A stretch of DNA of 58,435 bases from Abditibacteriaceae bacterium (GTDB lineage: Bacteria; Armatimonadota; Abditibacteriia; Abditibacteriales; Abditibacteriaceae). Where the stretch lies: NCBI GenBank assembly GCA_031425655.1, contig JANPJS010000114.1, forward strand, positions 1-58,435, written 5' to 3'. The position numbers were made by a program, and so were the translations under genes. Positions 13,927-35,360 of the stretch are shown here, piece after piece; the stretch's first letter is position 1; each line of letters starts with the position of its first letter. The notes beneath the pieces were generated by a model. It made no database searches. It was not told the origin of the DNA and was given only the letters and a program-made list of their open reading frames with translations.

Positions 13927-16116
13927 ATGGACGTGTCAAAACAGAAGGTTTTGGTAGTCGGCGACCTAATGCTTGATCGAACGTGGCTTACTTCGTTTCG
14001 GGCCAGCCCGACCTCTGAAAGCCATGCCAATGTCGAGCCGCACACGCGATTCAATCCCGAAGCGATTGACGTTCGTGCTGGCGGGGCGGGAATGACTGCA
14101 CTGTCAATTTCTTCACACCCTATGGATACCGAGGTGCATCTGTTGTCCTCCGATTGCCATTCCGATGACGTTAGAGTTTTTCAAAATCTGGGTCTATGGC
14201 GGGCCGAAACATCCGACTGTTCAGAAGAAAATCGGCCTCCTCATGCGGTGACTTGGCATATTCTTGAATGGGATCCGAGCATCAAACCAATAACAACTGT
14301 TAAGTTCCGAATATTTGACCGCATGGCCGGACAGACTCCGAAATTACGTCATCGCTTCGATCAAGACCCTCCCAATGATTCCAAAATCGAACCTTGCCTT
14401 CCGGCATCGTTGCCGCAGGATATCGATATTGTCTTCCTCTCTGAATTCAACAAAGGAGCAATCACCGAAAATTTGCTAATGGCATTGCAGGAACGTTACT
14501 GCAAGGCCTTCTGGCTATTGGAAGCTAAAAATAAGAAGTTGCTTGAATCGTTTGGCAACAACATTACGAATAAACGCTTCGTCATCCTCTCTAATCGCAG
14601 CGAAGCAGAGCAGCTATTTACCTCCACCTTGTCGGATCCGTCAAAAAAGGCTCCTCAAAAGACGACCTTGAACGGCAAAAAGACGATTATCTGGCCTCAT
14701 CTCCTCCACCACGGCTCTAAATTCCTTACCGACACCGGCTGGCAGGGTCTAATTTTAGTAGTGAAACTTGATGAAGATGGCGCAGTAGCCTTTTGGCGAG
14801 ATTCGACCAATCAAAACTTGCACGATTCCCCGGTTCAGGATGCAAAGGTGTGGGTCTGTGCTGCATCAGGTGATAAGTTCCCCAATGTCGCTGGCATTGG
14901 TGCGCGTGATTTTTTTAGTGCAGGATGCATCAATGCAATCATACAGCGCGGGAAGGTAACTACCACCTCACAGCTAGTCGAATCATTGCTTATAGGCGGT
15001 ATTGACTACGCTCAACGCTGGATAAAATTCAGCGACGTTGAGTTTTGGGAATCGAAGGCTCATAAAGAGAAAAAGAACGGCAAGGGATTGCGCGATTGCC
15101 CTTGGCCGCAGGATTTACAGACTTACAGCCAGTCAAAGCTCAAGTATCCGATACTTGACAGAAGGCCAGAGGCTGTCGAAGCTGCAATTAGACGAAGTCA
15201 ATCCGCAACCAAATACCCAAAAAATCTTGGCAAAACCGGCAAACCAAAGGAATTGACGTTGAGTGAGGCGAAGGGTTATTTGGGCGAATTTCTCACGGTA
15301 GACCCAGTAAAGGGCGATCTCATTAGTCGCTTCGCTGATGAAATCAAAGAGTATTTTGAGCGCACGGTGAAAACCCGACCTTTGAACTGCGCTATCTGGG
15401 CGGATCCAGGGTCGGGAAAATCCTTCTTCGCCAAAGAAGTCGCAGCTTTTGCGAAAGCCCATTTTACTGAGATAAACGTCAGTCAGATGACCTCGACACA
15501 AGAACTTTTGAACCAATTGGGTTACATTGCGGGGAACAAACGCGACAGGTTGGTTTTACTGCTGGACGAGGTAGAGACACTAATTCAGGGCAGTCATGTT
15601 TATCCGCAACTTCTGGCTCCGCTCTGGGACGGAACCGTGGCGTCGGAACGAGGCCTGCTTGATTTGGGGCGGCGATTCGTTTGCATCCTTGTCGCAAGTA
15701 AAGAAGGATTCAAAACGGGGGAAAATTTCGTTCGGCAAATCGCAAACGAGAAGAACGCAAAGGGGCCTGACTTAGCTTCCAGAATTAATGGCCGAGTCAT
15801 GACCCTCCAAGCGCCAAGTAACGCAGACCGCGCTTACATGGCTGCGAGTCTCATAAAGCGCAATTTTGGAGAAACGGTTTCACAAGTTCACTTCGGGCTT
15901 CTTGATTTCATTGTCAAAGGCAAGCTATCACCGCGTAAAATAGAGCAGTTGTTGGGCGGAGTGAAGCAACCGCGCGACGGATGTATAACAAAGGACGATT
16001 GGAAGCATCTGGTAGAAGACGGGAGCACCTTTTTGGCTCGGTTGAGCACTAAAATGACACAAACCGAAATTTCCGCCTACGTTCGCAACACCGAAATTGT
16101 CACCATCAAAGAGTGA
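13927..16116 (+). CDS. HldE/PfkB-like kinase-fold domain fused to C-terminal AAA-type ATPase
   Basis: KVLVVGDLMLD, GGAG, TTVKFRI, SEFNKG, VVKLDEDGA, GIGARD; Walker A ADPGSGKS, Walker B LLLDEVE, GPDLASRI; AT-richer than flanks. Confidence 0.75.
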   Translation: MDVSKQKVLVVGDLMLDRTWLTSFRASPTSESHANVEPHTRFNPEAIDVRAGGAGMTALSISSHPMDTEVHLLSSDCHSDDVRVFQNLGLWRAETSDCSEENRPPHAVTWHILEWDPSIKPITTVKFRIFDRMAGQTPKLRHRFDQDPPNDSKIEPCLPASLPQDIDIVFLSEFNKGAITENLLMALQERYCKAFWLLEAKNKKLLESFGNNITNKRFVILSNRSEAEQLFTSTLSDPSKKAPQKTTLNGKKTIIWPHLLHHGSKFLTDTGWQGLILVVKLDEDGAVAFWRDSTNQNLHDSPVQDAKVWVCAASGDKFPNVAGIGARDFFSAGCINAIIQRGKVTTTSQLVESLLIGGIDYAQRWIKFSDVEFWESKAHKEKKNGKGLRDCPWPQDLQTYSQSKLKYPILDRRPEAVEAAIRRSQSATKYPKNLGKTGKPKELTLSEAKGYLGEFLTVDPVKGDLISRFADEIKEYFERTVKTRPLNCAIWADPGSGKSFFAKEVAAFAKAHFTEINVSQMTSTQELLNQLGYIAGNKRDRLVLLLDEVETLIQGSHVYPQLLAPLWDGTVASERGLLDLGRRFVCILVASKEGFKTGENFVRQIANEKNAKGPDLASRINGRVMTLQAPSNADRAYMAASLIKRNFGETVSQVHFGLLDFIVKGKLSPRKIEQLLGGVKQPRDGCITKDDWKHLVEDGSTFLARLSTKMTQTEISAYVRNTEIVTIKE

Positions 16117-21630: not shown

Positions 21631-21639
21631 AACGCATAG

Positions 21640-21751
21640 TTTCAATGGAACACGGATTACACGGAAACGACCACGGGTTTTCACAGATCAGGCAAAAGAA
21701 AAATCCGTGTTAATCCGTGGCCGTTTCTGTGAAATCCGTGTCCCATTGAAA
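21640..21751. repeat. TTTCAATGGAACACGG-family palindrome (copy 2)
   Basis: Same termini as 9104-9227. Confidence 0.85.
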
Positions 21752-21756
21752 ATAAT

Positions 21757-22890
21757 ATGAAACGAAAACGACGCGTGCTTATCGCCGCCACAATTTTAAT
21801 CGTGCTTTGCGGTGCGGCATATTTCGCCAAGCAGCGTTGGCTCAACGACACGCGCGCTTTGCAAATTACCGTCGCTCCGAACACACCGGCACCGCTGGCG
21901 AAGTGGCCGTGGCCCAAAGCCAAAAGCGATGCTCCGGCGCGCGGCGTGAAGCATTGGATAGACAAATCTTCGTCCGATGGCACCGTTGTCGAACTGCTCG
22001 AATTCGACTTCAAGGCGAATCCAAAATTGCGCTTTGCAATGTTCGACCAGGATTCCGACGACGCCAAGCCCTGGGATAATCACTGTCTTTACTGGCCGCG
22101 CGGTGCCGGACAGATGACGCAACAGTTGAACGGTAAAAGTCAGCGCGTCGTGGCGTTGTGGAACGGGTTATTTTTCGGTTATCACGGCGGCTCGAAATGG
22201 GACAAAAAGAATGCGTTTCACGTTTCTCCCGTCGTTCTAAATGGAAAAGTGCATGACTGGGGCGCCAATCATCGCTGGACTTTTGGCGTGAAATACGTCA
22301 ACGGCAAGCCGGTTTTCAAGACGTTTCATAAGCCGTCGCGCGAGGTTTTAGCGAAAGAATTCGATTTCGGCGGCGGCAGCGCACAAGGTCTGATCAAAGA
22401 CGGCAAACCGCTGAAATTGCGTCCGCCCGGCTTGCCGAAACTGAAACAGCCCGTCGCTTCGACGCCGCAGGAAGCCGGACACATTCCCGATTTCGACCAT
22501 ATGCGCTCGTGTCGCGCCAGCATCGGTTGGACGAAAGACAATTCCAAACTCTATTTGCTCTTTGTGAAAGAGCCGGATTCGGAAAGCGCCAGTATTTTGG
22601 CCGCGCGGCATGGCGCCGGTTGGATGGGCGTGAGCTTGTGGGGCGGCTGGACGGTGGCCGACGTGCAGCGTTTCTGGCTGGCCAAAGGCGTCTGGGGCGC
22701 GGTTAATTCCGACGCCGGTGATGTCGCGCAATTATCGCTTTTGCGCCCCGACGGCGACTATGATCTGGTGCCGCCGCGTCAAGGTTCGGACAAGATGCGC
22801 TTGAAAATGAAGCCCGATTTCAAAGGCGCTCCGCACGGCGGCGCGCTGATGTATTTTTATGTTGTGGAAGAGAATAAGTTGGGGCGCTGA
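21757..22890 (+). CDS. Membrane-anchored protein, possibly phosphodiester glycosidase (NAGPA)-like
   Basis: N-terminal TM; NGLFF, RSCRASIGW, AVNSDAG resemble NG.FF / PRTAIG / ALNLDGG. Confidence 0.6.
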   Translation: MKRKRRVLIAATILIVLCGAAYFAKQRWLNDTRALQITVAPNTPAPLAKWPWPKAKSDAPARGVKHWIDKSSSDGTVVELLEFDFKANPKLRFAMFDQDSDDAKPWDNHCLYWPRGAGQMTQQLNGKSQRVVALWNGLFFGYHGGSKWDKKNAFHVSPVVLNGKVHDWGANHRWTFGVKYVNGKPVFKTFHKPSREVLAKEFDFGGGSAQGLIKDGKPLKLRPPGLPKLKQPVASTPQEAGHIPDFDHMRSCRASIGWTKDNSKLYLLFVKEPDSESASILAARHGAGWMGVSLWGGWTVADVQRFWLAKGVWGAVNSDAGDVAQLSLLRPDGDYDLVPPRQGSDKMRLKMKPDFKGAPHGGALMYFYVVEENKLGR

Positions 22891-24256
22891 TGGAAATAGT
22901 TGCGGAGCCGCTATTTTTGCGGCGTGATTTGGCGGGTGCTTTATGTGGCGTCGCGGCTTTGGCGGGCACCGCATTCGGCAACGCATGAAAATAAACCCGC
23001 GCTTCCTTTTCCTCGAACTGAATGCGATAAAAACCGCTGCCATCCGGCACGGGTTTGATCCAATTATCGGCTTGCTCCCAATACGTCGTAGTCCACGGAA
23101 GGTAAGCAATCGGCTTGCGTGTCTTGTCCAAGACGACTAAAGCTTTTTCGCCTTCGCCCATAGTGATCGGATCGCGCATCCGGGACTTTCCCTCCACCAC
23201 GAAGCGTTTGGCGGGTGATTTGGACTCGCGTTGCCATAACAAATAGAAATGGCTTTGTGTATCAAAATACACGGCGGGCGTTATCTGATTTGCATCCAGT
23301 TTCAAGACTTCAAGCCATTTGGGTTCCTTAGCTTGCAGGTCAATAAAGGGCGCGCCCTTTTCTTTGCCATCTTCCCACAACCACAATTTGTGGACTTTCC
23401 AAGTGTTCATATTCAAATCAGTATCATATTGCCAAACCTTGCCATTCGGAGAAAAGCGAGGCAAGAGTTGCTTTTGAAGGGGATCGGAGATTCGTAAATC
23501 GAGCAGTTCTTTCCCATTACTACTCAAAAGAAGTTCGAGGCGAGTGCGAATGCGGTTGCTTCCATTGCCCAAACTACTTTTAACATCTTCGCCCGTAAAA
23601 CTTAATAACATCTTGTCACCGGCACTCTCGGTGAAGTTTAATCCCCAATTCCATTGCTTCGTGAAATCGAATTGCGGAGCGACCACAGCTAACCTGCTCA
23701 GTATGAAATTTGGCATTTTGCGACGCCAGTCGAGCAGCGGTTTGGTTTTGTCCTTTTGACCTTGACGGCACATGATGACAGGCAATCCTCCCAAACCAAA
23801 ACCTTCCTCACGGGCACCGATCCACAAATGTCCATCTTTTGTGGTCGCCATGTAATCCACATTTCCGATGCTAAGAGGCCCCCAACTCTCGTGCAGCTTG
23901 CCGAGTTTGTCATAACAACGCAACATCCCGCTGCCAAAGGTAGTTGGATCATAAAAATAAAAGTTGCCTTGCCAGTCGGCAGCAACTAACCGCCCAATTC
24001 CAACATGCATCTCATCCTCAAAGAGTGCTGCGCGGTAAGGAACACCCTGAATGTGCCGTTGGAACAAATGATAGGGTAAGCGCAGCACCAAACGGCCTAC
24101 TGAAATGGGAAGTTGGGGAGCAAAAACCGTGGACGCAGATTTGGTAGTTTGTGATTTGGCATGAGCATTGGAGGGGCACACGCACATTCCGCACCACAAC
24201 GCGGTTAGAACCACGAGACATACACTGATTTTTAAAATCAGTTGCTTGTTGTTCAT
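22820..24256 (-). CDS. Secreted hypothetical protein (beta-rich; candidate partner/immunity)
   Basis: Signal peptide AHA-K; ATGA overlap with the stop of the upstream 960-aa gene; AT-richer. Confidence 0.78.
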   Translation of the reverse strand: MNNKQLILKISVCLVVLTALWCGMCVCPSNAHAKSQTTKSASTVFAPQLPISVGRLVLRLPYHLFQRHIQGVPYRAALFEDEMHVGIGRLVAADWQGNFYFYDPTTFGSGMLRCYDKLGKLHESWGPLSIGNVDYMATTKDGHLWIGAREEGFGLGGLPVIMCRQGQKDKTKPLLDWRRKMPNFILSRLAVVAPQFDFTKQWNWGLNFTESAGDKMLLSFTGEDVKSSLGNGSNRIRTRLELLLSSNGKELLDLRISDPLQKQLLPRFSPNGKVWQYDTDLNMNTWKVHKLWLWEDGKEKGAPFIDLQAKEPKWLEVLKLDANQITPAVYFDTQSHFYLLWQRESKSPAKRFVVEGKSRMRDPITMGEGEKALVVLDKTRKPIAYLPWTTTYWEQADNWIKPVPDGSGFYRIQFEEKEARVYFHALPNAVPAKAATPHKAPAKSRRKNSGSATISISAPTYSLPQHKNTSARRRAERL

Positions 24257-27135
24257 GGCGCCACCCATCTGCGATACACAGCATTTCTATCGCGCAAGAA
24301 CTTCCCGCCTCTTGAGTATTCCTGAACTTTGTTCCATTGAGCCGATTGGTTGTCTTCCGCCGGTTTGGCTTCAATAGTCTGCGCCTTATCAATTCCCGTG
24401 ACTCGACCTAACGCGTCATGTAAAAGAGACGGAGCAGATATCAAATAAACGACATGTCCAGAATATGGAATGAAGTCGCCTTCCCGCAGGTGCCGGATAT
24501 CTTTCACCTCGACGCCATTGGTCTTCAAGGCACCTGCACTTGGACCATCGCCTGGGGAAAACCAAATCCCTGACAAGTTAGCGACTTCCGTAACGAATCC
24601 ATTGCAATCAACACCATACCCTGCCCGTGTTTTGCTCATACCCATCTTGCAGATTCCGTCGGGAATGGAATTTGCCAAGTCGGAAAGGGTATAACTTGTC
24701 GACGTAGCGCTCTGGCGTCCACCAAAAGTCTGGCCTCCCCAGCTATACGGCACATTCAAAAACGCATAGGCATTTCTCACGAGGTCAGTCTGAAACTCCC
24801 CTTGTTTCGTTCTTTTCTGAATGTCGGCCAAAACGTCAGCATTATGATTATCTATTTGCGCCTGTGTAGGACTGGGTGGCAGCGGAGTTGGTGGCGGAAA
24901 CATCGGATCATGGGCAGCAAAATTTACGACGGCCCAAATGGGCATACCGGAAATCCGGCCCGTCCAGCCACTGACCGAGGGCGCAGTGACTTGAGGGTTC
25001 GGCAGCCACAGGTGCTGTTTTGTCGCCTGCGCTCCGTCCAGATAATTGAGAATGTTGTAGCGATTGAGGCCGGAAACCAAGTTGGCTCCTTGATACTCCG
25101 CGTTGTTGTTCTCCCATGCCGTTAAATGCACGCCGCCAGCCCGGTCTGTCGGCAAATCGTAATTGAGGGTTTTCGTTTCGGCGGCGCCATTAGCGCCACG
25201 CCAAACGCCCCTCCAACTAACGCGTGCACCCCACCAATGCGTGCCTTGAGTAAGAAGCCTTTCAAATTTAAAACCGCTGCCGCCTCCCGACAATGGCACC
25301 ATGCCATACCAACGGTATTTGCCTGGATGCTGTTGAATTGTTCGGTTCTCAAACTCCCGCCATGTTATGACGGGATGAAGCGAGCCAGCCGCTTTCCAAG
25401 AGTCCGCGATTTTTCTCACGTCGGCTGGAAACGACGCTGCGCCTTCAATGCCCCCTGCCCCAATCCACGCGTATTTTGACAAGTCGCTAATTTTCTCGTT
25501 GGAATACCATTTTATTTGATATGTCCCCGGCTTTGTCATTGTCTTGATACGCAGGAAGGCGCGAAAGCCGATGGTGATGCCTACCGCAAGTCGGCGTGAG
25601 TTTTCAACTGTCGCAACTGATCCCCCAGGGTTCGTGGCGTCGAAACCGAGGGCAATACCGGTTACAACCGGCTTGGTGTCTGCCACCTGCTTCGCGGCAA
25701 CTGCGGTGCGGCCAAAATTGCCTTTTACAGGAGCAATGCCGCCAGCTACCAGAATCCAATCACCCATCTTTTCCACGCTGTCCTGTTTCAACGTCCACGT
25801 TCCAATCCACCAATCGCCATCTTTTGTCAGAGCAACTTCATCTTCAGGAACGAAATCGGGCTTGACCAACTTGAGATAGGTGCTGTCCAAAGAGGCTATT
25901 GCACCGGCTGGATCGACAAACTTGAGCTTGATACGCACTTTGATTCCGTCATCGGTTGTGCCCGTCAAGGCTTTGGCGTTGCGGGCAGATGACGGCTTGA
26001 TTTTCATCGCAGCGGCAGCGTCCGCATCGTCTAACACTTCAAATTGCAGGTCGCGCACCAATACGTTTTGATTGAGGCGTTCCTTTTCTTCACCAGTGCC
26101 CGTCAATCCAATGTTTTGCTCCGCACTTGGAGGTTGTGCAGGGTCGAAGGTGCCCTCCAACTCAATGTTGTATTGATACGTCCCGCTGGCAGGCTTCGTA
26201 GTAGGAAATAGGTCATCCCATGTTACATCGGTGTTGGTTGTTTCAAAGGTCGCCAAGGGAGTGCCCAAAGCTCCATTTCCAACGGGGATTGGGTAAACCT
26301 TGACTGTAGCTTTCCAAGTCTGGTAACCAACCACGCGCACGCCAAAGTGGATGACTGGATGCTCTACCGAGGCATCGGGCGTCGGCGTTAAGGTGGTTGG
26401 CGCTTCGCTCTCCGGTTCCCAACCTGACGGCTCACTATAGACCTCAGTTGATGGATCCGACGACCCTGACTCGTCGAGGTCGCCCTCCTCCGCTTCTTGC
26501 GTTCCCGGCGCATCTTCTGTCGAGGCTTCCGCTGTAATCAAGGGAATTACCGGCTCGTCCATTGGTATTTGCGGAGCGCGATAAGTAATGAAATTGGGAT
26601 CGCTGGCGCGCAACTGAAGGATAGTGTCAATGACTTCCCCGCCACCGTCGTAGGCGAAAAAAGTAAGGCCGTCCACGTCCACACCCGAAGTGAGGAATGT
26701 GTTGCTGTAAGTGATTTTGATCTTGTATAGGCGATTGGCCTGCCAAGCATAGGAAACCTCAAAGAACGACTGGTTCAAATCGGGAAGAGCCTGGCCTTTG
26801 TCCAATTTGTCATGCTTGACGACACCATCCACCTCCAGGCGAACACCGTCGTCGCTGAACAAGGCGATTTTGGTGTCGTTGGAAGTCGGTTTGAAATAGC
26901 CCTCAAAGGTTTCCCGAAAAGGCAGGCTGGTGGGTGTGTTTGGGTATTTGGGCCAGTTCACAATCTGTTGCTGCGCTGCGGTCCGTGTGGCGACAATGTC
27001 TCCGTCGCCCATGTTCATGAAGGCATCGGACAAACCCAGCACGGCGTGAGCCGGACGCGGTGATAGAAGCATGGCCGCAGCCAAAATCATGGCCAAAAAG
27101 CCACGGCGGAAAATTTGTAAAAAGTGCGTCGTCAT
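24253..27135 (-). CDS. Secreted multidomain protein: PA14-like + Ig-like + C-terminal NlpC/P60
   Basis: Signal peptide AHA-V; FSDDGVRLEVDG (PA14); VTWD...SGTYQYNI (FlgD/Ig-like); VPYSWGG...GVDCNGFV...GDF...GHV. Confidence 0.8.
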   Translation of the reverse strand: MTTHFLQIFRRGFLAMILAAAMLLSPRPAHAVLGLSDAFMNMGDGDIVATRTAAQQQIVNWPKYPNTPTSLPFRETFEGYFKPTSNDTKIALFSDDGVRLEVDGVVKHDKLDKGQALPDLNQSFFEVSYAWQANRLYKIKITYSNTFLTSGVDVDGLTFFAYDGGGEVIDTILQLRASDPNFITYRAPQIPMDEPVIPLITAEASTEDAPGTQEAEEGDLDESGSSDPSTEVYSEPSGWEPESEAPTTLTPTPDASVEHPVIHFGVRVVGYQTWKATVKVYPIPVGNGALGTPLATFETTNTDVTWDDLFPTTKPASGTYQYNIELEGTFDPAQPPSAEQNIGLTGTGEEKERLNQNVLVRDLQFEVLDDADAAAAMKIKPSSARNAKALTGTTDDGIKVRIKLKFVDPAGAIASLDSTYLKLVKPDFVPEDEVALTKDGDWWIGTWTLKQDSVEKMGDWILVAGGIAPVKGNFGRTAVAAKQVADTKPVVTGIALGFDATNPGGSVATVENSRRLAVGITIGFRAFLRIKTMTKPGTYQIKWYSNEKISDLSKYAWIGAGGIEGAASFPADVRKIADSWKAAGSLHPVITWREFENRTIQQHPGKYRWYGMVPLSGGGSGFKFERLLTQGTHWWGARVSWRGVWRGANGAAETKTLNYDLPTDRAGGVHLTAWENNNAEYQGANLVSGLNRYNILNYLDGAQATKQHLWLPNPQVTAPSVSGWTGRISGMPIWAVVNFAAHDPMFPPPTPLPPSPTQAQIDNHNADVLADIQKRTKQGEFQTDLVRNAYAFLNVPYSWGGQTFGGRQSATSTSYTLSDLANSIPDGICKMGMSKTRAGYGVDCNGFVTEVANLSGIWFSPGDGPSAGALKTNGVEVKDIRHLREGDFIPYSGHVVYLISAPSLLHDALGRVTGIDKAQTIEAKPAEDNQSAQWNKVQEYSRGGKFLRDRNAVYRRWVAP

Positions 27136-27177
27136 TGTTTTCTCCCTGACAGCAAGGCATTTGGGTTCGGAACCCGT

Positions 27178-27987
27178 TTATTTTTTCTGAGCCGGAACTG
27201 GCCCGGCAGTCTGCGTTTTGAGTTGTTTTTCATACTCCGGCAACAGCTTTCGCGCGCCCGACACGCTTCCGGTCGGGGAAATTTCCTTCACACAGTCAAT
27301 CGCTTCCTTCCAGCGCTTCTGTGTGGCCAGCATTTGGGCCATGTTCAACCGGGCAACATCGGCCACATTGGAACTTTTGGCGCTGACGACCAGAATCCGA
27401 CACGCTTCTATCGCCTTGTCGGGAACTTTGCCTGCCTGATAGGTTTGGATCATGGTCTGCAAAACTTCCTCAGGGCCGGGATAAACGGGTGGAGTGCGAT
27501 TGGCCCACTGCCATTGCGGCACCAAATAGGCGTCGCAAATATCAACTGCCAACGGCTCGTCTTTCAAGCGAACAAGGCAACATTGCACCGCCGTGCAAAC
27601 CAAAGCAACGCCTTGAAAGGCACGGTCTTCATCCCCGCTTTGCAGACACTCATTGGCCAGCTTCAAATGCTGCCCCACCAACAAATAACGAGCAGCATCG
27701 TTGGGTGCCTTGGCATATTGGGTCGCAGCCCAGCCAAACCCCTTCATCCAAGGCATTGCTGAAATGGTCTGTCCCGGTTTTTGTGTCTTCTCCGCTACAT
27801 GGCGAAAAACCTTTTGCTTCAGGGAAACCACCGAAGCCGACGGGTCAAGCAGCGGCCTTGAACCTGTGCCACTCGGAGCGGCAGACAACTTCTCTGGAGC
27901 AGCGCTGACAGAAGTGCCCCCGTGACCTGCAAAAGTCAGCACTGCGCCAAAGGCCAAAGTTTTCAGAATGTTTTGAGCGCGCATCAT
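27178..27987 (-). CDS. Secreted TPR-like helical protein
   Basis: Signal peptide, GGAG RBS, ARLNMAQMLATQKRWKEAI. Confidence 0.72.
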   Translation of the reverse strand: MMRAQNILKTLAFGAVLTFAGHGGTSVSAAPEKLSAAPSGTGSRPLLDPSASVVSLKQKVFRHVAEKTQKPGQTISAMPWMKGFGWAATQYAKAPNDAARYLLVGQHLKLANECLQSGDEDRAFQGVALVCTAVQCCLVRLKDEPLAVDICDAYLVPQWQWANRTPPVYPGPEEVLQTMIQTYQAGKVPDKAIEACRILVVSAKSSNVADVARLNMAQMLATQKRWKEAIDCVKEISPTGSVSGARKLLPEYEKQLKTQTAGPVPAQKK

Positions 27988-28593
27988 TGGTCTCCACACA
28001 TTTCACAAACGGGGCGTCCGCATCCGATTACGCCCGTGTGCTAATCCCTTCGACCGCGCTCCACTCGCCGATTGGTTCGTTGCCTTTGAGGTAGCGGATG
28101 CAGTATTCGCGGTGTTCGACTTGCCCGGCGGTCAGCGGCGGGCGGGTGTCAACGTAGGGGCTGGCGAGGGCTTTGTCGAGCGGCGTCCACGCCGTTTCGC
28201 CGTTGCGACGGCTTTCGATGAGGACGCCGGAGTAGGCGCCTTTGGCGAACTCGATTTGCACCTGATGGTTGGTCAGCGCGATCAATTTCTTGATCGTCGC
28301 CTGTGTGACTACCGGCGCAGCTTTGGGAATGATGTCCAACGCCTGCCCAATGGCTTCGGTATAACCGGGATGCTTGCGGATGCGGCTAATTAAATCGCGC
28401 GTGCGCTTCCACAGGCCGGGCGGCACCGCTTCGGGCGGCGACGGCAGCGCGGCGAGGCCGGGAAAAGCGCCCAACACGGCGCTGGCCGCGCTGTTTTCCA
28501 GCACCTTGCGGAAAGCACGCAGGTCGTCCAGATAAGTCTGTGCGCCGTCAATGGCGGTTTTAATGAGAAAACTGTAAAAGGCAGCATCTTTCT

Positions 28594-29797
28594 GAACCTG
28601 TTGCGTAATAAGTTTTAAGTTCGTGTAGGGAGTCAATATTAGCGAGGCGCCCTTATTTGTCGGCCTGAGGTCTTACCAGTTCAAGCTCCCCAGTATGCCG
28701 AAGTTGTGTAGTCCAGCCACCACCGCTACGGTGCTTTGGTGTCTTTGCCAATCCGCACGATACAAACCAGACAACACCCGCCAGTTTTTCAAATGACCGA
28801 TATTTTGCTCAACCTGCATACGCTGCGGTGAGACCATCGTATAGTTCCACGCCTTGCCTAAAACGGTCAACTTGGATCGACCACTGCCTTTGAGCGCGGC
28901 CAGAACTTTGACTCCCGGCAGACTGCCATACTGATTTTTTTCGGGCTTGCCCTCTTTCTCCAAGCCGCTGTAACCGCGATCTAAACGCACCCGTCTTCGA
29001 TGACGCGCCGTGGACAAAACGGGTCGTTTTCCCTGCTGGGCCTTGCGTTTGACCGGTGAGGCCGCCGCGCTGATCGAACGCAACACGCCCGATGCCTTGA
29101 GTAACTGCCGGTCAGCCATCGAACCGGGACAGTTGCCCATCATGTGCACCACCAGACGACCAGCGGTGGTGACCTGAGTTTTGACAGTGTGACAGTGGAT
29201 TTTGCCAGAGTAAAACTGCTTCTTTTCACGCTTGTTTTGATACTTGGGCACTTCCTGCTCGGTGGCGTCTACGCATAAATCACGCAACTCAGGATAGGCT
29301 TCGAGCAATTCTTTCAAGGTGCCAATGCGCTTGCCGCTACGCTTACCACCCGAACCTCCCGAACCAGAACCTCCCGAACCAGAATCGCCGTTTTCCAAAG
29401 CCGACAACAGGTGATCTTGCATGGGAATTGGTAACACTTCCAAGAGAATCGGCAGCATCCGCTCATTCCGCTCACGCCACAGATTGCTTTCATGAATCTC
29501 GAACAAACAGCCCAGCAGAAAACCGGTCAGATGAAGACGGTAATAGAGCAGCGTTGCCAGCAAGCGTTCTTCCACAGACAGCGTAAAGGGACGACCACCA
29601 CCCACCGCGCGCACACGAGGACGCTGCGTCAAACGCCGCTCTTCCTGAGCCTCATACAAGGGCCGCACCGCACACGCCAACTGCGTAAACTCGTCCACGC
29701 TCAGACCCAACAAACGGCGGAATTGACCGGGCCGACTCTGTAATTTCTTGACTGTCATCATGGCTTTGAGTCTAACTACTTATTACGCAACAGATTC
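28594..29797 (-). mobile_element. IS5-family (DDE_Tnp_4-type) insertion sequence
   Basis: TIR GAA(C/T)CTGTTGCGTAATAAGT at both ends; 3-bp duplication TCT (28591-28593, 29798-29800). Confidence 0.88.
28673..29761 (-). CDS. Transposase (HTH_Tnp_4 + DDE_Tnp_4 type)
   Basis: FRRLLGLS, GGRPFTL, LLATLLYYR, VDATEQ, YSGK, LDRGYSG, RMQVEQNIGHLKNWRVL. Confidence 0.9.
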   Translation of the reverse strand: MMTVKKLQSRPGQFRRLLGLSVDEFTQLACAVRPLYEAQEERRLTQRPRVRAVGGGRPFTLSVEERLLATLLYYRLHLTGFLLGCLFEIHESNLWRERNERMLPILLEVLPIPMQDHLLSALENGDSGSGGSGSGGSGGKRSGKRIGTLKELLEAYPELRDLCVDATEQEVPKYQNKREKKQFYSGKIHCHTVKTQVTTAGRLVVHMMGNCPGSMADRQLLKASGVLRSISAAASPVKRKAQQGKRPVLSTARHRRRVRLDRGYSGLEKEGKPEKNQYGSLPGVKVLAALKGSGRSKLTVLGKAWNYTMVSPQRMQVEQNIGHLKNWRVLSGLYRADWQRHQSTVAVVAGLHNFGILGSLNW

Positions 29798-29972
29798 TCT
29801 GGACGATCAGCAGTTCAGCGTCGGTGACGCCTACCTGTGCGGCGCGCGGCGCTAATTCGCGCGCGAATTTAAGCAGAAAATCGGCGCGTCCTACGTCATC
29901 GAGTGGAATGTAATCAAGTGCCATGAGTGCCTTTCAGCGTTCCTTTTCAGAAATTCGCCGCTCCATCTTTCA

Positions 29973-34793: not shown

Positions 34794-35360
34794 TTATTCA
34801 TCCATGTTTTTGAGAATCTGCATGAACTCATCGAAGGAGTCGGCGATAAGATACAGGTTTTGAGCATCAGGGAAAGGCGAATTACGCCACCAGAAAATAG
34901 CACGCGGACGCAATCCAAACAGGGCAAGACAGATTTCGTTGCCACCTGCATCTGAACCAATAGGCAACAGTTCTTCGGGCCATTCCATCTCGTCAACAGG
35001 AGTTGAAATGTCGCGCACTAATTGAAGGCCAGGATACCACTTATAGCCGTCCTCTAAACAAAAATAACGCCGTCCTTGAAGGTAATTATCAGCTAACGTT
35101 TCTTGGTCGGTTGAGCCATAAAACATGAAAATACTGCCTTCCGTCAGACAACCATCTTGATTCATAGAGAACAACAGATCGTTGTCGAATATTATTCCTC
35201 CGTAATCCCGTAGGAACTCACGATAATCATCCGCTAAGCGATAACCCAATTGGGTTTCTATTCTCTTTATATGCCTATCATCCAAAGTTGGGCCAACCCG
35301 CGAGAGGTTCGGGTAGTAGCCTTGCAGTTTGGTAACAATGGGCGCATATCTGTTGGCCAT
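34794..35360 (-). CDS. SMI1/KNR4 (SUKH) family immunity-type protein
   Basis: IETQLGYRLADDYREFL..YGG, LLPIGSDAGGNEICL, LIADSFDEFM; AT-rich. Confidence 0.88.
   Translation of the reverse strand: MANRYAPIVTKLQGYYPNLSRVGPTLDDRHIKRIETQLGYRLADDYREFLRDYGGIIFDNDLLFSMNQDGCLTEGSIFMFYGSTDQETLADNYLQGRRYFCLEDGYKWYPGLQLVRDISTPVDEMEWPEELLPIGSDAGGNEICLALFGLRPRAIFWWRNSPFPDAQNLYLIADSFDEFMQILKNMDE

Follow-up and report, generated by a model that had tools for sequence, protein, structure and literature searches.

An exported three-gene cassette from an Abditibacteriaceae genome belongs to an Armatimonadota family of likely polymorphic antibacterial toxins

The closest known counterpart of the cassette described here is the MafA-MafB-MafI system of Neisseria, although its domains are unrelated (PMC4287609; PMC3482391). 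In the portions of these two sources that were available, MafB is encoded behind a conserved upstream gene; it carries a signal peptide, a constant N-terminal region specific to its lineage, and a variable tip. The tip sometimes stands behind a HINT domain, it is accompanied by its cognate immunity gene as well as by orphan tips, and a Sec step is followed by an unclear exit through the outer membrane. The family examined here shares each of these features. Its starting member lies in a stretch of 58,435 nucleotides, hereafter the window, on contig JANPJS010000114.1 of the Abditibacteriaceae assembly GCA_031425655.1. The cassette is one copy of an Armatimonadota family that probably forms a polymorphic antibacterial toxin system. 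The family appears to be a variant of the Sec-dependent polymorphic toxins and likely constitutes an undescribed class of weapon. GTDB places Abditibacteriaceae in Armatimonadota, a phylum that has been little studied.

The cassette consists of three co-oriented open reading frames (ORFs) on the minus strand. The upstream gene (27178-27987) encodes a helical partner of 269 aa if read from an ATG, or of 273 aa if a GTG at 27999 is taken as the start. The middle gene (24253-27135) encodes a 960-aa carrier composed of a signal peptide, a PA14-like head, an acidic linker, Ig-like segments and an NlpC/P60 tip. The third gene (22820-24256) encodes an exported 478-aa β-propeller, the predicted immunity protein, which is translationally coupled to the carrier by an ATGA in which the stop of one ORF overlaps the start of the next. 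An earlier sequence-only reading had described three AT-richer genes of this layout, all with signal peptides, and the ORF coordinates and base composition agree with it. The GC contents of the partner, carrier and propeller genes are 0.545, 0.529 and 0.49 against 0.567 for the genome, placing them at the 8.6th, 4.5th and 1.7th percentiles among 1676 mechanically called ORFs of at least 400 aa. On visual inspection, aided by a hydrophobicity heuristic, all three N-termini read as type I signal peptides with no lipobox. None of the genes has a paralog in its own genome, and NCBIfam returned no family match for any of the three proteins.

The carrier begins with a signal peptide (27043-27135, minus strand; residues 1-31) with an AHA cleavage motif, followed by the PA14-like head (26626-27042, minus strand; residues 32-170). 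As anticipated, the head is recognized by Pfam as PA14 above the cut-off (E 2e-5). It contains an SDDG motif, likely a DcisD Ca2+/sugar site, and the SDD/DD motif is kept in 147 of 150 head representatives and is degenerate in three fused carriers. In the PDB, the head profile matches best to the PA14 domain of Clostridium RsgI3 (6qe7, E 1.6e-6), in an alignment that includes the DD motif; the window head differs from it by a family-specific N-terminal extension. In RsgI3 the DcisD motif binds calcium for sugar recognition, according to the available part of the source (PMC6852018), and by this analogy the head may bind a glycan through its DD motif. The head is followed by the acidic linker (26368-26565, minus strand; residues 191-256), in which 18 Asp or Glu and no Lys or Arg were counted in 66 residues, and by the Ig-like segments (24940-26367, minus strand; residues ∼257-732), whose model over residues 489-732 resembles Ig-like sandwiches with Z of 5.5-6.3. 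Both regions had been proposed from the sequence and stand.

The whole 960-aa protein found matches in 4 of 40 related genomes, always over residues ∼7-175 only and within ORFs of 452-908 aa. A conserved N-terminal carrier, expected over residues 30-500, exists but spans residues ∼30-170 only. Searching 1.84 billion representatives, the head profile matched 751 clusters with E ≤ 0.001, of which 324 reached 1e-10 and 81 reached 1e-30. Clustered at 50% identity, the family thus numbers 324 clusters or more; the best 150 representatives from this search, carrying no taxonomy, were examined. The head begins 20-80 residues into the protein in 115 of these, and a hydrophobic stretch precedes it in 109 of the 115. 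Within the phylum, 15 of 401 genomes match the profile, 13 of them strongly, and 21 metagenome loci match as well. Outside Armatimonadota the search extended to the phylum of Schlesneria only: a single PA14-head fragment with no partner occurs in a Schlesneria metagenome-assembled genome, and the partner profile gave two weak matches in 301 genomes of the Schlesneria phylum.

The partner is a hallmark gene of the system. Among 38 carrier ORFs whose context was read, 36 have a homolog beside or fused to them: in 32 it lies no more than 150 bp upstream, in one it lies 839 bp upstream, beyond an insertion, and in three it forms a fusion; the remaining two carriers are cut by contig ends. Some loci in this set are near-duplicates, and two (L064 and L065; E ∼1e-6) were excluded from the census as generic PA14 matches inside long unrelated proteins. 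Strong partner and strong head matches fall in the same 13 genomes, a co-occurrence that is partly circular as the partner profile was built from those loci. In the window genome the partner is single-copy. The gene had been labelled TPR, and this label did not hold up: the single TPR_21 repeat found is below the Pfam cut-off (E 0.009), and the protein belongs to a system-specific rather than a generic TPR family. Since the partner is fused to the head in three genes, direct binding between the two is slightly favored. Gene order and the fusions suggest that the partner may act as a chaperone or export adaptor. Two further arrangements were seen around partner genes. At 12563-14308 of L112, away from any carrier, two divergent partner domains make up a protein that stands alone, and in five loci of one genus (L055, L059, L060, L094 and L111) another conserved exported gene of ∼460 aa precedes the partner.

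Behind the constant head the C-termini are exchanged. The last 200 residues of 139 carriers fall into 88 clusters, an approximate figure because the set contains duplicates and contig-cut proteins. Two tandem paralogs of L056 share 86% identity over residues 1-708 and are unrelated beyond; the carriers of L047 and L048 are 72% identical over 1-438, and those of L049 and L050 80% identical over 1-338, before their tips switch abruptly. In L061 two orphan tips come after a full gene, along with four further copies related to the gene downstream of it; orphan tip/immunity cassettes occur in the L061 and L008 arrays, with none in the window. The tip of L037 resembles a CdiA tRNase (7vmc_B, E 6e-18) and the gene after this carrier resembles CdiI from the same PDB entry (7vmc_C, E 2e-7). 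The tip of L007 resembles NucB (E 3e-9) and is followed by a gene resembling ComJ/Nin (E 3e-19) that has no signal peptide. The P0100 tip carries PT-HINT, and other tips contain matrixin-type, DUF6973 or DUF4347 domains. A zincin-type HExxH motif is found in 14 of the 88 tip clusters, against a mean of 0.35 and a maximum of 2 in shuffles. Tips like nucleotidyltransferases, RelE, transglutaminases and pore formers are presumably present too, by motifs that we recognized by eye. A TPR-C39-DUF6531-RHS protein with a signal peptide comes after a short carrier in L008, L039 and L042-L044 (Pfam was run on those of L008 and L039), and RHS toxins with orphan modules lie downstream of short carriers.

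These data, among them the CdiA-type tRNase/CdiI and NucB/ComJ pairs, bear out the variable tip and the changing downstream genes that the sequence-only reading had predicted; the homologs carry unrelated tips and downstream genes, not the unvarying C-terminus and partner that had been set in advance as grounds for rejecting it. In the definition of Zhang et al. (2012), a polymorphic toxin joins a constant N-terminal trafficking region to variable tips, as seen here. Tips homologous to known toxin domains are also present, with most tips having no assignment, and a cognate downstream immunity gene was found for L037 and L007. It is very probable that the family includes true polymorphic toxins. 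For the window, the immunity gene is inferred from coupling, fold and co-migration.

The window tip (24253-24816, minus strand; residues 774-960) matches NlpC/P60 in Pfam below the cut-off (E 0.0024). Aligned as a profile against 19 canonical NlpC/P60 domains from relatives, it scored 97% in HHalign (E 9e-11), and 20 column-shuffled control profiles scored at most 0.9%. The proposed C-terminal NlpC/P60 domain with its Cys-His pair was confirmed: GVDC844, H894 and E922 are all present, and Tyr797, Asp843, Cys844, His894 and Glu922 are invariant in all five tip homologs. The NlpC/P60 residue pattern (Tyr...Asp-Cys, His and a third polar residue) is thus found on a predicted papain-like fold. The first 27 VIA rows for the tip model all cover residues 774-960; they comprise folds of the NlpC/P60 and CHAP types and others of papain-like kind, with Z of 6.3-8.0, values that are middling and agree with the sequence evidence for NlpC/P60. 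On its sequence, the tip is assigned as a divergent NlpC/P60 peptidase with an intact Cys844/His894/Glu922 triad.

What such a domain cuts is not readable from its fold, and the structures that match it best are self-directed DL-endopeptidases and MagC. The family could then be a toxin system in which the window NlpC/P60 domain acts on the producer's own wall, in remodelling or release, or on a substrate other than peptidoglycan, with the propeller as its regulator; a releasing peptidase is another role that papain-like domains play in polymorphic toxins (PMC3482391 Table 2, in the part available). Such a role appears quite improbable. The domain sits at the extreme C-terminus, the slot held by nucleases in relatives, and it moves between carriers together with the propeller. 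The genome also holds conserved housekeeping NlpC/P60 genes elsewhere, to which the window tip is a divergent extra.

The 478-aa protein is modelled as a β-propeller over residues 47-432 (predicted local distance difference test score, pLDDT, 67.6), with a Foldseek match at E 2e-8 and a structural match at Z 15.7 (root-mean-square deviation 4.0, 270 aligned). It has five homologs at 35-52% identity, and its tail beyond residue 427 is not conserved. The module from about residue 250 or 420 of the carrier onward, to which the Ig-like segments belong, also sits behind three N-termini that lack PA14 (P0163, P0164 and L078). In L078, from a genome of another family (G231), a propeller homolog with GC 0.34 overlaps the stop of the homologous tip gene; because the pair recurs on a different carrier there, tip and propeller move together. 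A precedent is offered by Tsi1, a partial propeller that inhibits the peptidoglycan hydrolase Tse1 (PMC3391265, in the part available); it is an analogy and not a proof. That the window copy is a peptidoglycan-cutting toxin with a cognate immunity protein is rated as probable.

Two side observations concern these modules. At 6022-6501 of L080 and ∼2750-2860 of L081 only the last ∼30 propeller residues are left behind unrelated toxin-like genes, so that the surviving end looks as if it were a recombination junction. A PKD-like domain with a DD...DDP motif was also recognized by eye; it turns up repeatedly, both in carriers that have PA14 and in carriers that lack it (L078 9951-11762, L081 3-2678, P0163 and the C-termini of the L008, L039 and L042 carriers) and may mark a second, related carrier class.

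Several observations weigh against reading the cassette as a toxin-immunity system. The tip model has low confidence (pLDDT 53.6), and Foldseek returned no match for it at E ≤ 0.001. The tip-propeller pairing is known from two loci only, the window and L078; L079-L081 (genomes G075 and G099) retain only propeller remnants, located after different genes that are exported or toxin-like, and a propeller can stand behind other tips as well. A partner paralog in genome G221 has no adjoining carrier, and none of the loci read has a linked export gene. Across the family Pfam recognizes nothing in most tips. In many carriers the last domain is Ig-like and an enzyme tip is missing; a separate exported protein comes next, often then a propeller. 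Some end in a β-helix, an arginine deiminase or a polysaccharide deacetylase and need not be toxins.

The Ig-ended carriers include a split form in five loci (L006, L030, L036, L040 and L062), where a tipless PA14-Ig carrier is followed by a separate signal-peptide protein, in L036 an Rv2525c-like glycoside hydrolase, and a propeller-type protein. Such loci, together with the β-helix, deacetylase and deiminase tips, would fit partner and head being a general surface-display or export tag with toxins as only some of its passengers; the window copy would then be a nutrient-scavenging or biofilm peptidoglycan peptidase and the propeller its accessory subunit. PA14 domains are indeed common in adhesins and glycan sensors, as the available part of PMC6852018 describes. 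Nevertheless, tips of tRNase and DNase type that come with their own inhibitor genes are ill-suited to feeding, as are HINT, RHS and orphan arrays, and the cassette is patchy, with strong matches in 13 of 401 genomes, and atypical in GC. A general tag is therefore considered unlikely, and a polymorphic toxin system is the reading preferred here.

With respect to export, the genome encodes six secretins, one Omp85/ShlB-matching gene unlinked to the cassette, and TatC. Tat export was considered and rejected as a family feature: the RRxF motif with a following hydrophobic stretch occurs in 1 of 115 members with an N-terminal head, and the RRGFL of the window is unique. Since RRGFL is not conserved, Sec is likely the first export step. 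The 97% complete genome yielded no match to TssC/VipB of type VI secretion (T6SS), and the carrier, unlike Tae/Tai effectors, has a signal peptide; neither the window protein nor the genome has the YD/RHS repeats and core of RHS toxins. Pfam found no filamentous haemagglutinin repeats in the window proteins, and the TpsB transporter with repeats that marks contact-dependent inhibition (CDI; CdiBAI) was not found. The earlier claim that no T6SS, CDI or RHS marker is visible holds for this genome and cassette but not for the family, since modules of relatives sit directly upstream of RHS toxins.

In the mechanism we propose, all three proteins would cross the inner membrane by Sec, and the partner would bind the PA14 head as a chaperone or export adaptor. 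The carrier might leave the periplasm via a secretin or in vesicles, although in the MafB case losing the PilQ secretin made no difference, as far as the available text of PMC4287609 goes. The PA14 head could bind, through its DD motif, a surface glycan of the target or the producer, with the acidic linker and Ig-like segments providing reach. The NlpC/P60 tip would cut the peptidoglycan of rivals, and the β-propeller would inhibit the tip in the producer's periplasm. More tentatively, partner and head may form a dedicated lectin-guided export-and-targeting module of Armatimonadota that, with no T6SS, CDI or RHS machinery, carries wall-cutting enzymes and cytoplasmic nucleases to rivals; its tipless form would load separate effectors, including whole RHS toxins, non-covalently.

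The two marker profiles, head and partner, define a polymorphic toxin class for Armatimonadota. An obligatory partner, natural fusions and a lectin-type head provide specific handles on how signal-peptide polymorphic toxins, the MafB type among them, exit a diderm cell and enter the target. With the head as bait, dozens of tip clusters with no family match and their downstream genes become candidate new antibacterial enzymes and inhibitors.

The DNA around the cassette was also inspected. A contig of run X1 covers 21698-29381 with zero differences, and X1 may itself be the source of the window DNA; runs X2 and X3 gave scattered short pieces only. The carrier protein was not found in any of three same-genus genomes (79-93% complete), nor was a clean empty insertion site, the pepF-alkA and ftsK flanks being unlinked in the congener G003. 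Just upstream of the cassette, an IS5-type element (DDE_Tnp_4; 28594-29797) with 20-bp inverted repeats and a duplicated AGA splits a gene into a 5′ part (29798-29924) and a 3′ part reaching to 28028. Its insertion may affect cassette expression, and a transposase 75% identical to its own lies on C198. No homolog of the split gene was found near any other locus examined, and it is not counted as part of the cassette. On the other side, a convergent NAGPA-like exported gene (21757-22890), with a 56% paralog on C288, is overlapped at its 3′ end by the non-conserved tail of the propeller gene (22820-22890). Between it and alkA lies a 52-nt inverted repeat (21637-21754), likely a repeated element, since contig depth there is very high in run X1. 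Farther away are an orphan SMI1/KNR4 (SUKH) immunity-type gene (34794-35360, GC 0.45) upstream of ftsK with no adjoining toxin, and a gene for a 729-aa protein (13927-16116, GC 0.49) with a PfkB/RfaE-like N-terminus and an AAA ATPase by eye, of which Pfam detects the AAA alone.

Published descriptions of the head-partner pair were not found in a literature search that covered neither supplements nor subscription papers. By title and abstract start, no paper on a PA14-headed polymorphic toxin of this kind was seen; the search likewise returned no description of an Armatimonadota interbacterial weapon or an Abditibacteri toxin-immunity system, and PA14 is not mentioned in the 300,000 characters of PMC3482391 that were searched. 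Among the systems that have been described, the TANFOR toxins of Bacteroidetes likewise combine a phylum-specific N-terminal domain with downstream immunity; they belong to another phylum, have another head and are linked to the type IX secretion system, with no obligatory upstream partner noted in the available part of the source (PMC7073777). The UmbABC umbrella particles of Streptomyces also join a secreted polymorphic toxin to lectin domains and accessory partners, as described in the portion available (PMC11062931). Here, no ALF repeats or trypsin-lectin subunits were found, the lectin-type domain is in cis and the host is diderm. Tse1/Tsi1 of Pseudomonas aeruginosa resembles the window pair in placing a papain-like peptidoglycan hydrolase (3vpi, Z 5.6) against a periplasmic inhibitor of β-propeller type. 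From what was accessible on that pair, Tse1 is a small T6SS cargo and Tsi1 a partial propeller; neither has a sequence match here, where no T6SS was found. The comparison with Neisseria remains the closest. Pfam scans found no DUF1020/MAFB-N domain of MafB, and the window partner has no lipobox. MafA is a glycolipid-binding lipoprotein in the parts of the sources seen, whereas the partner here is helical, mostly lacks a lipobox across the family and can be fused to the toxin; and, unlike in MafA-MafB, the lectin-type domain resides in the toxin chain itself.

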